From: Candidatus Adlerbacteria bacterium RIFOXYC1_FULL_48_26
GTDB taxonomy: Bacteria; Patescibacteriota; Minisyncoccia; Phycocordibacterales; SBAW01
Direction: 5' to 3'
NCBI GenBank assembly: GCA_001773575.1
Contig: MEXB01000009.1
Location: 7,441 to 71,440, forward strand
DNA: 64,000 nucleotides
The translations under genes were made by a program, and so were the position numbers. The first letter of the stretch is position 1. Each line of letters opens with the position of its first letter. The notes beneath the pieces are model-generated. The model made no database searches. It was not told the origin of the DNA and saw only the letters and a program-made list of their open reading frames with translations. This document shows, one piece after another, positions 11,423-61,654 of this stretch.

Positions 11423-11695
11423 ATGCCTTCAAACACCCAGTTGATTGCGCGAGTAAAGGTGGACCGCCGGTTCAGCGGCGACATCGCGTGCGAACTTCGG
11501 AAGCGCTTCCCGAAGTATGAAAAGTACGAACGTCTGCCGGCTGCCGGCAAGGACGATGTCACGCACCTCCTGGAGTTCACCGTTGACGAGAAAGACGCCA
11601 AGGTGTTCTTCACCCTCCACCAGCGTATGGGACCCCATCGCGGCGAACTGATGTTCTATCGGCCAGAAGTCATTCCGGAGGCCGTCGCCGCCTGA
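11423..11695 (+). CDS. Small hypothetical protein (paralog B, 90 aa)
   Basis: SD GAGGAG before ATG; paralog of 10625-10879. Confidence 0.6.
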   Translation: MPSNTQLIARVKVDRRFSGDIACELRKRFPKYEKYERLPAAGKDDVTHLLEFTVDEKDAKVFFTLHQRMGPHRGELMFYRPEVIPEAVAA

Positions 11696-16395: not shown

Positions 16396-16569
16396 ATGAA
16401 GCACTTCAGTCAGTCCTTTCCGATGCAGAAGAAGCACCTCGGCGCCAACAGCCTCGCCACCGGCAGCTCCCACGGCCTCAGCGCGACCGGCGTGAAGCTC
16501 GATCCGACCATGGCGAACATGACCGACCAGGCCGCCGCCGCCGGCCGTCTCGACGTCGACAAGGGCTGA
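16396..16569 (+). CDS. GC3-rich mini-gene P1 (57 aa, Gly/Ala/Ser-rich, C-terminal Gly)
   Basis: Canonical SD GAAGGAGG 6 nt before ATG; nearly all third codon positions G/C; followed by two hairpins, the second a strong terminator; shorter than the 60-aa ORF-track cutoff. Confidence 0.5.
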   Translation: MKHFSQSFPMQKKHLGANSLATGSSHGLSATGVKLDPTMANMTDQAAAAGRLDVDKG

Positions 16570-44050: not shown

Positions 44051-44296
44051 CTAGTAAAAGCAGCGTCCGCGCTTGCCCTTGCAGACCGGCGCCCTTTCGA
44101 AGGAGCCGTGCGACGGCGTTTCGGGATAGTCCCGGAACACCGTGGTGTGCGCACTGGCCGCCGGCGCGATCGCGGGCTTGGACGCCTGCATCGACATCTG
44201 CGCCACTTCGACAATCTTGAGGTTGCCGTACATGGCCCGATGAACAGCACGGTCGGCGAGCGTCGGGTCAACAGTATTCAGAACCAAAGTGCCCAT
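44051..44296 (-). CDS. GC3-rich mini-gene P2 (81 aa)
   Basis: SD GGGGAG 7 nt before ATG; perfect consensus promoter upstream; hairpin GAGGCGG...CCGCCTC + T-rich tail after stop; GC-rich codons. Confidence 0.5.
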   Translation of the reverse strand: MGTLVLNTVDPTLADRAVHRAMYGNLKIVEVAQMSMQASKPAIAPAASAHTTVFRDYPETPSHGSFERAPVCKGKRGRCFY

Positions 44297-53745: not shown

Positions 53746-54468
53746 CTATTCAGCGATAGTGATGGCAATAAACAACACCAAAGCACCCACAAGAGTCATA
53801 AATGTAGTCCAGAATGTTGGGTGTGCGTGATGGCTTTCTGGTATCAAGTCGGATGCGCCGATGTAGAGGAAGAACCCAGCAAAGAGTGCGAGCAAGAGTC
53901 CAAGGGTCGCAGCAGGTACTGTAAAGAATAGAGTTACGATGATGCCGGCGACAGGCGCAAGCGCATCAACAAAAAGCCATCTCAAAGCCTGCTTCTTTTG
54001 GCCACCATGACGCACCACAACATTTACTGTATTTATGCCGTCAGAAAAATCGTGGGCAAGTACGGCGGCCGCGACAATAAGACCAACCGCAGGCGACACT
54101 TGAAAGGCTAAGCCAATTCCAACACCATCAAGAAAACTATGGATTGAAAGTGAACCTGCTTTTACATGACCTCGAGAATGACCGTGTTCGACATCCTCTG
54201 CATGTCCATGACCATGCAACATCAACAAACGATCGAGCAACAAGTACAGCAAAAATCCGAGACCTACGAATGAGGCAATCGTGGATACTTCATGCACCTC
54301 CCCTGCGAGTTCAAATGCCTCAGGCACCAAGTCAAAAAAGGCAACCGCAATAACAGCGCCTGCGCTGAATCCCAAAATCAAATGCATTTTGTCGCGTAGT
54401 TTAAGCGCAACAAATCCTCCAATCATAGTTGCACAAAACGCTGCGAAAGAGATGAAAATTAATGTCAT
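53746..54468 (-). CDS. ZIP-family zinc/metal transporter (ZupT-like)
   Basis: 240 aa; 8 TM; His-rich loop HGHGHAEDVEHGHSRGH; HDFSDG and LAHDxxDG-like ZIP motifs. Confidence 0.8.
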   Translation of the reverse strand: MTLIFISFAAFCATMIGGFVALKLRDKMHLILGFSAGAVIAVAFFDLVPEAFELAGEVHEVSTIASFVGLGFLLYLLLDRLLMLHGHGHAEDVEHGHSRGHVKAGSLSIHSFLDGVGIGLAFQVSPAVGLIVAAAVLAHDFSDGINTVNVVVRHGGQKKQALRWLFVDALAPVAGIIVTLFFTVPAATLGLLLALFAGFFLYIGASDLIPESHHAHPTFWTTFMTLVGALVLFIAITIAE

Positions 54469-54487: not shown

Positions 54488-54901
54488 TTACGAACATCGG
54501 GCACACAGACCGAATAATTCCAACGAGTGGCTGTTAATGCTTTTAAATGCTTTCGCGTTTTTAGCTGCTTTTATAAGGGCTGTTTCAAGTGACGGGTCAG
54601 AAAAATCCTCCACCCTTTCACAGCTGGTACACACAAGATGGTGGTGATGCTTCTTCCCCACCGACAACTCATAGTGCGCGTGTCCGTGCCCAAGCTCCGA
54701 ACGCGCGAGCAGATTCTTTTCTGTAAGCGCTTCGAGGGAACGATACAGTGTTACGGTATCTTGTTTTTGTCTTAGTTTTTTTTGGATCTCTACAACAGTT
54801 AAGGGCTTGACCTCATCCTGCAAAAGCTCCAACAACGCAACTTTCCCCGGCGTTGCGCGGAAACCAGCCTTGCGAAGCATTTCTTTAAATCCCTGTTGCA
54901 T
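54488..54901 (-). CDS. Fur-family metalloregulator (likely Zur, next to ZIP transporter)
   Basis: Start MQQGFKEML; wHTH, HHHHLVCTSCERVEDF and GLCARC metal-binding Cys pairs. Confidence 0.75.
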   Translation of the reverse strand: MQQGFKEMLRKAGFRATPGKVALLELLQDEVKPLTVVEIQKKLRQKQDTVTLYRSLEALTEKNLLARSELGHGHAHYELSVGKKHHHHLVCTSCERVEDFSDPSLETALIKAAKNAKAFKSINSHSLELFGLCARCS

Positions 54902-54958: not shown

Positions 54959-55297
54959 TTAGTCTTTATGCTTCGTGCGGTGCATGTCGGTAAGCACACC
55001 GTTTGCCTCCATCAGAACAGCTATAGCATTTCGCAAGAAAAGAACTCCTGCGCCAACTGTTAGCCATCCAGTAGCGAAAGACATAACCGGAGAAGTAAAC
55101 ACGGTAACAGGGTTATACATACAAACGGCAAAAAAAGTAAACCAGAGCGATGCGCAGAACCCGCAGTACAAGGCTCCTCCAACAATAGGAAGCGATTCAA
55201 TCTTTTTTGCAAAGTCCTTATGGTCAAGCAAGATAGCTCGCCATATAAGCGTAAACGTAGCAACGGACGCGGTCAGTACTAAATATTCAGCAATCAT
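54959..55297 (-). CDS. Hypothetical 4-TM membrane protein
   Basis: Start MIAEYLVL right after upstream terminator; ORF-track Arg/Pro-rich 74-aa extension is read-through into GC-rich islet and rejected. Confidence 0.5.
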   Translation of the reverse strand: MIAEYLVLTASVATFTLIWRAILLDHKDFAKKIESLPIVGGALYCGFCASLWFTFFAVCMYNPVTVFTSPVMSFATGWLTVGAGVLFLRNAIAVLMEANGVLTDMHRTKHKD

Positions 55298-55312
55298 ATA
55301 TTTATAGTAATA

Positions 55313-55356
55313 GTTTAATAAAAGTGCCCCGCCAAACATAAAGTCCGGCGAGGCAC
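55313..55356 (-). terminator. Rho-independent terminator after mini-gene P4
   Basis: Minus strand GTGCCTCGCC-loop-GGCGGGGCAC (10-bp stem, one mismatch) + TTTTATT. Confidence 0.7.
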
Positions 55357-55377
55357 GACGCACGATGAGGTGACGCC

Positions 55378-55641
55378 TTACAGGTGGGCGGCCAGCGGGT
55401 TGCCGCTGTCGCGCAGGAACCCCATCCCGAACTTCGAGACCGGGTGGACATTCCCGCCACGCGTCTGGCAGAGAGCGCCGTCCTGGACGACGAGGTCGCC
55501 CGCGTCCGGCCGGACGCAACCGTAGTCCTTGGCCGAGACCACGACCACAGCATCGGATTTGACGCTACCCTGCTGCTCCGGCGTGAAGACACAGGACGTG
55601 CAGCAGGGCGGACAGCCGCCACACGGGGGCTTCTTGGACAT
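55378..55641 (-). CDS. GC3-rich mini-gene P4 (87 aa) with Cys-rich N-terminus MSKKPPCGGCPPCCTSC
   Basis: SD AGGAG (inside palindrome CCTTCGAAGG) 8 nt before ATG; strong terminator after stop; GC-rich islet flanked by AT-rich DNA. Confidence 0.5.
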   Translation of the reverse strand: MSKKPPCGGCPPCCTSCVFTPEQQGSVKSDAVVVVSAKDYGCVRPDAGDLVVQDGALCQTRGGNVHPVSKFGMGFLRDSGNPLAAHL

Positions 55642-55759
55642 CGAATCAACTCCTTCGAAGGTACTTCAAACGCAACCAATTTGCGTTTGTATATGCAAGA
55701 ATATCACAGCATATAACCAATTGCAAGTTATTTGCAATTACATATATCGACTAAACACA

Positions 55760-56905
55760 CTAGTGTCGATGTCCGTGAGAACCCGTGTGTGTTATAGATG
55801 ACACCTTCGACAACATCCACACTGCCACAAATGTTGTGATAGGTACGGCAAGAATAAGGCCGATGCTGCCTACAAGAATACGGACAATTTCTGTGGCAAA
55901 TAATTCGCTATTAAGTACAGAACTCAGGCTCGCACTTCCAGAATATGTTTGTGTCAGAAGTAAGAGCAACGGCAAGGCGACGCCGACGTATGCAATTGCC
56001 AACGTGTTTACTAAAGCGCCTATGTGTTCCCTACCGATGCGGATTGCTCGCTTATAGATATCAACACGGCTCATGTGTGTGCCTGCCAAAAATAATTCTT
56101 CTACAGCTATTGCCTGGCTAATAGCAATGTCGTACAGCACTCCAAGCAGACCTATCATAATGCCGCCAAAGAGAAGGCCTAGCATGTCGATACCGCCCTG
56201 CGTATTAAAGTTGAGATAAATACTCTCTTCGCTGCCATATCCGCTGAAATGCCCCATATGGACGACAGTGTATGCGAGAGCGCCGGTGATACTAACCGTA
56301 ATAAGCATGCCGATAACAGCCGCACTCGTGGTCTTGGTAAACCCGTGTGTGACATATGATCCCGCAATAATAATGAGCGACGCGACCCCGATACTCACAA
56401 GAATTGGGGAGTATCCGCTTAATATTCCTGGCAACAGTATGTAGAAAATTAAAATCAAACTACCAGCCAGACTCAAAAGCCCTCTGATACCCTGCACACC
56501 TCCGAACACAAAAAGCAGCATGAGAAAAAGAATTCCAAGCCATATAAGCAAGTCGAGACGGTACGCGTCTGACACAGTCCAATGGTCGGTTGCATCAAGT
56601 GGGTTACTGATATGCCGAACGTAGAAAATATCGCCCTCTTTTAATTGGGTGAAATTATTTTCAAACGTCGGTGTCTGTCCTTTATCCGGCCCTTCAAGTA
56701 CTTCTATTTTCAATGTCTGCACAGTGGCTGGGGTATCTGTCCCTGGAATAACTGTGTCGTGTTGATTAGTCATTTCCAAAACCCTAGCCTTCCCCACACT
56801 TATCGTGTCAGGCACTAATTCCTGGGCATGCGTAACGAAAGGAACTGCACCCAACAAGAGTGCAGTTCCTAGACCTATGTAGAGTATGCGCTTCATTCGA
56901 AGCAT
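55760..56905 (-). CDS. YibE/F-family polytopic membrane protein
   Basis: 381 aa; signal peptide, extracellular N-domain, then ~8 TM with YibE/F-like pattern; C-terminal His-rich tail. Confidence 0.7.
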   Translation of the reverse strand: MLRMKRILYIGLGTALLLGAVPFVTHAQELVPDTISVGKARVLEMTNQHDTVIPGTDTPATVQTLKIEVLEGPDKGQTPTFENNFTQLKEGDIFYVRHISNPLDATDHWTVSDAYRLDLLIWLGILFLMLLFVFGGVQGIRGLLSLAGSLILIFYILLPGILSGYSPILVSIGVASLIIIAGSYVTHGFTKTTSAAVIGMLITVSITGALAYTVVHMGHFSGYGSEESIYLNFNTQGGIDMLGLLFGGIMIGLLGVLYDIAISQAIAVEELFLAGTHMSRVDIYKRAIRIGREHIGALVNTLAIAYVGVALPLLLLLTQTYSGSASLSSVLNSELFATEIVRILVGSIGLILAVPITTFVAVWMLSKVSSITHTGSHGHRH

Positions 56906-58088: not shown

Positions 58089-58472
58089 CTACAATTTCTT
58101 TGGATCTAGCTCGAGACACACAGAATTGACGCAGTAACGATTGCCCGTACCTGTTGGGCCATCAGGAAATATATGGCCTAAATGCGAGCCGCATTGAGCG
58201 CATGTGATTTCTTCACGATGCATCCCGTAAGAATCATCTACGGTTGTTTTAGTAGAGCCGGGAATTGCCTGGTCGAATGAAGGCCACCCTGTTCCAGAGT
58301 CGAACTTTGCATCTGAAGAAAATAGCGCATTTCCGCAGACTTTACAGCGATACATGCCGTCACGTTTTTCATGTAGAAGCTCACCTGAGAACGGCGCCTC
58401 CGTCCCCTTCTCTCTTAGAACGCGGTATTGCTCTGGAGTGAGCTTTTTCTTGAGCTCTTCTTCGTCCATCAT
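58089..58472 (-). CDS. msrB: Peptide-methionine (R)-S-oxide reductase MsrB
   Basis: 127 aa; two CxxC zinc pairs (CKVCGNALF, CAQCGSHLGHIF) and catalytic Cys (RYCVNSVCL). Confidence 0.85.
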   Translation of the reverse strand: MMDEEELKKKLTPEQYRVLREKGTEAPFSGELLHEKRDGMYRCKVCGNALFSSDAKFDSGTGWPSFDQAIPGSTKTTVDDSYGMHREEITCAQCGSHLGHIFPDGPTGTGNRYCVNSVCLELDPKKL

Positions 58473-61395: not shown

Positions 61396-61575
61396 CTAGC
61401 CGAGCGTGGGATGGAAGCTGAGTTCGTTGCTCGGGTCGGTGCCACGCTCCTGCGCGCCACCGCTGCTGCTCGCCGAATGTGCGCCGGTGCCGCCGAGATG
61501 AGCCTGGACCTCAGCCGTCGTCATCACCGTCGCACCTTCACCCAAACGGGCCGTGAGGGCCGATTGCATATTCAT
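61396..61575 (-). CDS. GC3-rich mini-gene P3 (59 aa, Gly/Ser/Ala-rich, ends ...HPTLG)
   Basis: SD GGAGG 6 nt before ATG (MNMQ...); 80 nt downstream of E1-like gene with no terminator between; strong terminator after stop. Confidence 0.5.
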   Translation of the reverse strand: MNMQSALTARLGEGATVMTTAEVQAHLGGTGAHSASSSGGAQERGTDPSNELSFHPTLG

Positions 61576-61654
61576 AACCGTCCTCCGTTTGTACTCCGAC
61601 CATCTCAAGGATGGCCTTTCTAACAGTAGCAACCAGAACTAGCCCGTCAAGTGT

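Follow-up and report, generated by a model that had tools for sequence, protein, structure and literature searches.

A conserved cysteine-rich small protein and its CxxC membrane partner at a predicted Fur-family locus of Patescibacteria

The P4 gene and its membrane partner

We analyzed a 64,000-nucleotide stretch of the genome of Candidatus Adlerbacteria bacterium RIFOXYC1_FULL_48_26 (contig MEXB01000009.1), hereafter the window, whose positions are used throughout. An earlier note, made from the sequence alone, had pointed in this window to an isolated GC-rich patch encoding an 87-amino-acid (aa), cysteine-rich protein, which we call P4. The patch is indeed GC-rich (0.63 over 55309-55665, against a mean of 0.48 for the 64-kb window), and the gene itself reaches 0.674 overall and 0.864 at third codon positions (GC3). 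The open reading frame (ORF) was recovered exactly, with the protein sequence as quoted in that note. Directly 3' of it, on the same strand, lies a second small gene encoding a membrane protein with a CxxC motif, the membrane partner. These two genes comprise the following features:

55378..55641, minus strand: P4 coding sequence (stop included), ATG start, 87 aa
55650-55655, minus strand: Shine-Dalgarno (SD) sequence AAGGAG, 8 nt 5' of the P4 ATG, within the palindrome CCTTCGAAGG
55652-55661: perfect palindrome CCTTCGAAGG, spanning the SD region, from an inverted-repeat search
55324-55356, minus strand: intrinsic terminator or stabilizing hairpin at the junction of P4 and the membrane-partner gene, a 14-pair stem followed by TTTTATT
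54959..55300, minus strand: membrane-partner gene without SD, encoding a three-helix membrane protein of 113 aa, delimited by homolog alignment

P4 is a genuine small-protein gene with its own SD and terminator, and its reading frame exceeds chance, because it is conserved at the protein level in about 40-60 proteins. We compared it across 15 independent loci: the window (L005), L001-3, L004, L007, L008, L009, L010/L014, L011, L012, L013, L015, L016 and L017. A strong SD precedes P4 in 11 of the 11 loci in which this region was compared. The perfect palindrome around the SD, which the earlier note had described and which we find at 55652-55661, is probably coincidental, since it has no conserved counterpart in the other loci. 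The terminator reported after the stop codon, on the other hand, is both real and conserved: an 85-nt fold at this position has a free energy of -34.3 kcal/mol (z = -5.7), equaled by none of 200 shuffled sequences, and a GC-rich hairpin is kept 3' of P4 in every locus examined.

Homolog alignment places the true start of the membrane partner at the ATG at 55298-55300 (MIAEYL...). The 186-aa ORF at 54959-55519 is thus over-extended and enters the GC-rich islet only as an artefact, as the earlier note had supposed. The public call for this gene (126 aa), whose ATG lies inside the terminator loop (start region 55298-55339), is probably too long as well. Across loci the partner measures about 100-128 aa and has three hydrophobic segments, with invariant P38, C46-G-[F/V]-C49, W53, W79 and R90 and a His/Lys-rich C-terminal tail. 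In a hydropathy and positive-inside analysis, loop 1 and the C-terminal tail are rich in K, R and H and loop 2 is not; the CxxC motif is therefore predicted to lie at the cytoplasmic end of helix 2. While P4 always has a strong SD, the partner gene lacks one at either of its possible starts in every locus, which suggests, as far as can be judged from the sequence, leaderless or very inefficient initiation.

We found 61 homologs of the partner, all unnamed and one of them labeled Patescibacteria; the partner family is therefore about as large as that of P4. Its nearest named relative may be DUF1360 (PF07098), which resembles it in being a membrane protein of about 110 aa and in the C-x-x-C...W region, aligned to profile positions 52-88. 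However, this match is sub-threshold only (14 bits against a cut-off of 21, E = 0.03-0.05, in 6 of 11 members), and DUF1360 is itself a family without known function.

A small-protein family seen only in Patescibacteria

An indexed protein search with P4 returned four relatives besides an identical copy. Profile searches went further: the indexed database yielded 38 relatives, and an exhaustive search of 1.84 billion representatives yielded 42 at E<1e-3, of which 19 had E<1e-10. The family thus has about 40-60 members, is unannotated and is seen only in Patescibacteria. All relatives are stand-alone proteins of about 85 aa, labeled 'hypothetical' or not labeled at all. Two members are genome-resolved, in metagenome-assembled genomes of Candidatus Nomurabacteria and Saccharibacteria, and a groundwater metagenome contig from the Joint Genome Institute (JGI) matches the window. 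The exhaustive search also picked up long repeat proteins, among them P0033, whose domains were unrelated or absent; we set these aside as matches due to low complexity.

Judging from their sequences, family members that depart from the common length appear to be start-codon miscalls. The database protein P0005 (53 aa) is one: the real ORF encodes 83 aa (L007 515-766), has its own SD and carries a variant cluster, PCKGCPCSCTGC, in which the Cys stands at position 12 and not at 13. The same kind of miscall is probable for several further 'members' of 55-69 aa.

Scans of P4 and 39 family members against Pfam and NCBIfam gave nothing meaningful, and P4 relatives were not found in plasmid and phage collections. 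Within the 64-kb window, tblastn and blastn detected no paralogue of P4 or of its islet. An Rfam scan at gathering thresholds returned tRNAs only, with no riboswitch or leader RNA at the P4 locus. Literature searches on YibE/F, DUF1360, the CX2CX3CX2C motif and Zur-regulated Cys-rich small proteins provided no functional information.

A conserved cysteine cluster preceding a predicted folded domain

P4 of the window contains seven cysteines (C7, C10, C13, C14, C17, C42 and C59). The earlier note had counted seven within 13 residues, citing CGGCPPCCTSC; this string holds five in 11 residues, and seven is the total of the whole protein. The N-terminal cluster reads C7-x2-C10-P-x-C13-C14-x2-C17. 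In an alignment of 32 full-length members, C7, C10, P11, C14, C17, Y40, G41 and C42 are invariant or nearly so, giving a conserved core of C-x2-C-P-x2-C-x2-C plus Y-G-C. The same note had made its proposal depend on conservation of the Cys-rich segment, and this segment proves to be the most conserved part of the family. C13, in contrast, is variable: it is Cys in 32 of 51 members, and position 12 or 13 is C, H, D or E in 48 of 51. As read from the alignment, the exchange of C, H and D at position 13 is a pattern tolerated by a metal ligand, and not one of a disulfide or modification site. This conservation agrees with the metal- or redox-binding knuckle that had been suggested for the segment. 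The total number of cysteines per member is 5-7 in about 85 residues. Two features set the window protein apart: C59, at a position occupied by Gly in the family, and the absence of a C-terminal Cys common to its closest relatives.

We built an AlphaFold2 model of P4 on a 39-sequence alignment. The model has a predicted local distance difference test score (pLDDT) of 83.9 and a predicted template modeling score of 0.71; pLDDT is about 86-93 for residues 21-87 and lower in the Cys loop, as expected since no metal was modeled. Residues 21-87 are thus predicted with confidence to form a small alpha/beta domain, with strands at 32-35, 47-53, 56-61 and 64-68 and helices at 37-40, 70-79 and 82-86. 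Foldseek comparison of both AlphaFold2 models to the Protein Data Bank (PDB), and of the better model to the viral BFVD collection, found nothing below E = 0.5, the top matches being SH3-like noise. A sequence-profile search of the PDB with the P4 family gave a marginal match to a single-cluster Pyrococcus ferredoxin (E = 0.1), which includes the Y-x-C position. P4 has neither a hydrophobic segment nor a signal peptide; from the absence of the former we predict a cytosolic protein.

These features bear on a second suggestion of the earlier note, that the cluster might be a modifiable core peptide. P4 would then be the precursor of a ribosomally synthesized and post-translationally modified peptide (RiPP), or a secreted Cys-rich peptide, and the read-through terminator would set a high ratio of precursor to enzyme. 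The dense cysteine cluster is compatible with such a role, as is the succession of a structural gene, a hairpin and a poorly translated downstream gene, a layout that resembles lantibiotic operons. However, among called genes and Pfam labels, neither the window nor the 15 loci contain a radical-SAM, YcaO, lanthipeptide, LanB/C/M, MNIO or other maturase gene, and none of the 15 loci has a conserved gene for a maturase, a protease or an exporter. The Cys stretch begins at residue 5-7, at the extreme N-terminus and without a leader. The rest of P4 is a conserved, confidently folded domain, conservation extending over the whole 85 residues, and the exchanges at position 13 are those of a ligand and not of a modification site. 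Finally, at 110 aa the partner falls short of the size of any known modifying enzyme. We regard a peptide precursor as extremely improbable, and the Fur-type regulator and CxxC membrane protein that adjoin P4 argue for metal handling instead.

Predicted Fur-family operators over the P4 promoter

In every locus, a palindrome of the form AAAyGCrAA-n-TTyGCrTTT is found upstream of P4, or of an operon in which a glutaredoxin-like gene (grx) precedes P4. A symmetrized position weight matrix (PWM) derived from 15 sites has the consensus TAAATGCAAATAATTTGCATTTA and an information content of 23.4 bits. The core of this motif is TGCAAAT-n-ATTTGCA, a 7-1-7 arrangement; this layout and the AAT-n-ATT center are those of classical Fur, PerR and Zur boxes. 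Scanning the 64-kb window with the matrix revealed three sites above 12 bits, all of them at the P4 locus, the next best site scoring 11.9 bits. These sites and the predicted promoter are:

55718..55740: Fur-family box 1, TAATTGCAAAT-a-ACTTGCAATTG on the coding strand, an inverted repeat overlapping the -35 hexamer, PWM score 30.1 bits
55667..55689: Fur-family box 2, CAAACGCAA-ccaat-TTGCGTTTG, half-sites 55667-55675 and 55681-55689, PWM score 27.8 bits
54917..54939: Fur-family box 3, matching GCAA-N5-TTGC and located in the fur-ZIP promoter region, PWM score 19.2 bits
55698..55726, minus strand: inferred promoter, with a -35 hexamer TTGCAA (55721-55726), a 17-bp spacer and a -10 hexamer TATTCT (55698-55703)

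Box 1 is the best site of the entire window, and the -35 hexamer is identical to one of its half-sites. Box 2, whose 7-1-7 core reads CGCAAAT-t-GGTTGCG on the coding strand, sits just 3' of the predicted -10 hexamer and covers the likely transcription start. It coincides with the 9-bp inverted repeat that had been noticed in the leader, 100% complementary with a 5-nt spacer, and which is by our prediction a conserved Fur-family operator. An equivalent of this second box is present in L004, L007, L008, L010/L014 and L017, and the TTGCAA/17 bp/TAnnnT layout of the promoter recurs in five loci (window, L001, L004, L007 and L008). The locus shows two of the features looked for in a Fur regulon, namely a predicted box placed over promoter elements and a putatively cognate PF01475 gene nearby.

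Genes conserved around P4

The P4-partner pair is embedded among genes for a regulator and for membrane transport:

54488..54880, minus strand: Fur-family regulator, 130 aa from the ATG at 54880 (PF01475, E = 3e-22)
53746..54468, minus strand: ZIP-family divalent-metal transporter, directly 3' of fur (PF02535, E = 1.5e-21)
55760..56905, minus strand: YibE/F-family membrane protein, directly upstream of the P4 promoter (PF07907, E = 8.9e-63)

The hairpin followed by the CxxC partner gene is found 3' of P4 in all 15 loci. A Fur-family gene is adjacent in 14 of them (all but L011), usually divergent from P4, and a YibE/F gene is adjacent in nine. Metal importers stand alongside in several loci but differ in type: ZIP in the window and L014, ZnuABC-type systems in L001 and L011, and Nramp in L015 and L017. 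In L001, the genes fur-znuA-znuC-znuB-yibE/F-yibE/F are arranged divergently from grx-P4-partner. The YibE/F proteins end in His-rich tails such as HTGSHGHRH (window 55760-56905) and HGHSHSHSH (L014 6655-7785), and cytoplasmic His-rich tails are found in both YibE/F and the membrane partner. The tails of YibE/F and its L001 operon with fur and znuABC are circumstantial evidence, drawn from sequence, that YibE/F may be a Fur-controlled metal transporter.

The constancy of fur, one of the two most constant neighbors while the type of transporter varies, can also be read in another way. The target of P4 might be the Fur-family protein, for which P4 would serve as a metal donor, a sink or an anti-repressor that tunes the set-point, and not transport; P4 does have the strongest pair of boxes of the locus. 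Such a role would leave the equally constant membrane partner (15 of 15 loci) unexplained. Moreover, a repressor gene beside its main target is a common arrangement from which no link between the two proteins need follow, and we judge this possibility improbable.

A metal-homeostasis neighborhood and clustered cysteines would also suit a sink of the classical metallothionein kind, one that takes up excess or toxic Zn, Cd or Cu. However, P4 has only 5-7 Cys in about 85 residues, consists mostly of a folded non-Cys domain and has no Pfam or NCBIfam match. A Fur-type box would predict expression when metal is scarce, not in excess, and the neighboring transporters are importers, not exporters. 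A sink of this kind is in our opinion very improbable.

Other neighbors are of a different nature. In L001-L003, a single lineage, a glutaredoxin-like gene separates P4 from the Fur-box promoter; in L001 (7336-7617) it encodes a 93-aa protein with a CIPC active site and an HGNHSH stretch. Genes for methionine sulfoxide reductases (Msr; MsrB/SelR or MsrA/PMSR) lie within a few kb of P4 in the window (58089-58472 region, minus strand), in L012 (7813-8370) and in L014 (10369-10755). Their recurrence may reflect simple synteny of small genomes or a link to oxidative stress.

The regulator and the signal it may sense

In the PDB, the regulator matches several members of its family almost equally well (PerR 2.6e-13, Fur 6e-13, Nur 3.7e-12, Zur 8.5e-12). 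Members of its clade have in common HxHAHYE, HHHHxxCxxCGxxED(V/F) and a CxxC at the C-terminus; the N-terminal His present in Fur and PerR is absent. At the position corresponding to PerR Asp104, seven of eight full-length regulators have Asp, a PerR-like feature and not one of Fur or Zur. At the GC-rich, Saccharibacteria-type loci (L007 55-354; L014 5539-5847, also L010), the Fur genes are called at only 99-102 aa; they end in ...C(R/S)AC after HHHH-x-x-C-x-x-C, without the C-terminal dimerization half. These are either naturally minimal Fur proteins or the products of frameshifts or miscalls.

As to the signal, the content of the predicted regulon (ZIP, ZnuA-type, Nramp) argues for a divalent metal, whereas the lineage-specific glutaredoxin-like gene, a ferredoxin with a disulfide reductase, and the Msr genes keep alive a peroxide or redox signal. 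In the latter case, P4 would belong to an oxidative-stress regulon of the PerR type and be a redox or Fe-S protein, with an Fe(Cys)4 site, a small Fe-S center or redox-active dithiols, shuttling electrons or reducing equivalents to the CxxC partner and fed by the glutaredoxin-like or ferredoxin/reductase proteins. Several observations are in line with this. The window protein fits the spacing C-x2-C-x2-C-x3-C (C7/C10/C13/C17), and the marginal ferredoxin match at E = 0.1 extends to the Y-x-C. In L001-L003 the CIPC glutaredoxin-like gene directly precedes P4 and shares its operon, a fur-ferredoxin-Pyr_redox_2 operon is present in L016, and MsrA or MsrB is near in three loci. The top PDB match of the regulator is PerR, with Asp at the equivalent of PerR Asp104. 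On the other side, the ferredoxin spacing requires C13, a residue that is Cys in only 32 of 51 members; what the family keeps without variation is C-x2-C-x3-C-x2-C, and a Cys-Pro that could supply the fourth ligand is lacking. An E-value of 0.1 is not significant for a Cys-biased profile, and none of the 39 members scanned matches a rubredoxin or ferredoxin family in Pfam. The glutaredoxin and ferredoxin neighbors are confined to single lineages, while metal importers recur. A redox or Fe-S function is therefore the main alternative, but on balance a doubtful one.

A candidate metal-handling pair

The reading we favor is that P4 and its CxxC partner form a metal-handling pair that supports co-regulated import; we propose it tentatively, its probability falling a little short of even, with Zn(II) as our best guess for the metal. 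In this proposal, the N-terminal C-x2-C-P-x2-C-x2-C would bind a metal ion or a small metal center through its thiolates, and the ligand-type residue at position 12/13 and Cys42 may add to the site. When its metal cofactor is plentiful, the Fur-family repressor would shut P4 off through the two 7-1-7 boxes. Once the repressor loses its cofactor, the double-box promoter, the strong SD, the hairpin and the SD-less partner gene would together result in abundant P4 and scarce partner. On the inner side of the membrane, P4 would then accept, buffer or deliver a thiophilic divalent metal, whichever the direction of metal flow. Transfer between the two proteins would proceed by Cys-to-Cys ligand exchange, the CxxC and the His-rich tail of the partner serving as the docking site. 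The pair would support the importers with which it is co-regulated, ZIP here and ZnuABC-type, Nramp or YibE/F systems elsewhere.

Several points weigh against this metal-handling pair. No structural analogue in the PDB or BFVD anchors the P4 fold. A generic sigma-70 scan leaves the P4 promoter hexamers below threshold, so that the promoter is inferred from conservation only. PDB alignments and ligand residues leave it ambiguous whether the regulator is a Zur, a Fur or a PerR, PerR being the best match by a very narrow margin. The Nramp and ZnuA-type systems may carry Mn or Fe, and thiolates bind Mn poorly and Fe as Fe-S. The CIPC glutaredoxin-like protein of L001, the ferredoxin and pyridine-nucleotide-disulfide reductase of L016 and the nearby Msr genes point to redox. 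Lastly, one would not expect Zn starvation to induce a Cys-rich protein, unless that protein is a chaperone.

The nearest functional analogies are FeoA/FeoC, the MerP/MerT relay, MntS and the COG0523 chaperones; P4 is a member of none of them by sequence or fold. FeoA and FeoC are accessory proteins of Feo, the Fur-regulated system for ferrous-iron uptake; FeoA consists of a small beta-rich domain of SH3-like fold, and a four-Cys cluster site is found in FeoC. Like them, P4 is a small, predicted cytosolic protein (about 75-85 aa) encoded beside a metal transporter under a Fur-family box. It pairs a Cys cluster with a small beta-rich domain, and its sole, insignificant fold matches are SH3-like. 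However, there is no sequence similarity or significant fold similarity and no FeoB, and the membrane partner of P4 is a 110-aa CxxC protein.

The MerP-MerT/MerF systems likewise combine a soluble Cys-motif protein with a very small membrane protein of two or three helices bearing a Cys pair within or close to a helix, and metal is handed over in them by thiol ligand exchange. Here again there is no homology, nor is there a MerA or MerR. P4 is predicted to be cytosolic, not periplasmic, and its Fur-type box would imply a context of nutrient metal rather than detoxification. MntS (under MntR) and the COG0523 proteins ZagA and ZigA (under Zur) are switched on when the metal-bound repressor is lost, and are thought to improve the allocation of scarce metal. 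Their sequences are unrelated to P4; those of COG0523 belong to the GTPases, and a Cys cluster is missing from MntS.

Membership in established cysteine-protein families was also considered. P4 shares with rubredoxin, desulforedoxin and zinc ribbons four Cys arranged as two CxxC pairs, but the pairs are 3 residues apart instead of more than 10-25, and no Pfam, PDB or fold match was obtained. P4 does not qualify as a 4Fe-4S ferredoxin, given its variable C13 and the lack of a Cys-Pro. The YkgJ/CxxCxxCC family (PF03692), a putative Zn/Fe-chelating domain, was rejected: CxxCxxCC occurs in 32 of 51 members, but none of the 39 scanned had a Pfam match at E<=1. Neither did P4 prove to be a rubredoxin or zinc ribbon, a metallothionein of the SmtA/BmtA type, or a RiPP precursor. 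The P4 family is uncharacterized, within the known category of Fur-controlled metal or redox accessory proteins.

A GC-rich allele in the window

P4 genes are slightly richer in GC than their neighbors everywhere, owing to their content of Gly, Pro, Ala, Cys and Arg. In eight other loci, GC3 of P4 tracks that of its neighbors; it is anomalous only in the window, at 0.864 against 0.44-0.50 for the partner, YibE/F and fur genes. The anomalous stretch comprises the SD, the coding sequence and the hairpin only, and box 2 already has normal GC content. P0057, a likely orthologue from a related organism, shares KPPCGGCPPCCTSC and the terminal ...HL with the window P4 but is only 52% identical to it over the aligned part, while the partner P0089, presumed to lie on the same contig as P0057, is 67% identical to the window partner. 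These comparisons would fit a replacement of the P4 cassette of the window by a foreign allele from a GC-rich patescibacterium. A donor was not found: the plasmid and phage collections were empty in this respect, and a metagenome scan returned only distant loci.

The GC anomaly is accompanied by a change in orientation. In the window, the P4-partner cassette (54959-55641) is co-directional with YibE/F, fur and ZIP, whereas in most other loci (L014, L004, L012 and L013 were compared) fur is divergent from P4 and YibE/F convergent on the partner. This difference points to an inversion of the cassette in the window lineage. Four other small ORFs (57-90 aa) of high GC3 (0.72-0.93) lie in other GC-rich islets of the window, at 11423-11695 (plus), 16396-16569 (plus), 44051-44296 (minus) and 61396-61632 (minus), and have no Pfam match. 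They may represent the same phenomenon, that is, gene-sized cassettes of foreign origin or odd composition.

Implications for Patescibacteria

The Patescibacteria, or candidate phyla radiation (CPR), account for much of bacterial diversity; their genomes are tiny, and hardly any of these organisms are in culture. That P4 and its partner are kept across lineages as distant as Saccharibacteria and Nomurabacteria makes the pair likely to be important, although it has no name, domain or fold match. We thus have here a candidate for a new small metal-binding protein together with its membrane partner, and a clean, testable regulon with a defined predicted operator for a divergent Fur-family clade. 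The GC3 anomaly, confined to a single gene, is a compact case of apparent allele replacement within a conserved operon. The locus also gives a circumstantial functional context for the uncharacterized YibE/F. A bolder proposal, which we hold to be unlikely, is that the Fur gene, P4 and the CxxC protein, often with YibE/F, form an unrecognized metal-acquisition module specific to Patescibacteria, in which an abundant cytosolic Cys-cluster acceptor and the three-helix partner would carry a thiophilic nutrient metal into the cell, a Mer-like thiol-exchange relay put to use in nutrition. If this were true, it would provide YibE/F with its first functional context, as a Fur-controlled metal transporter.

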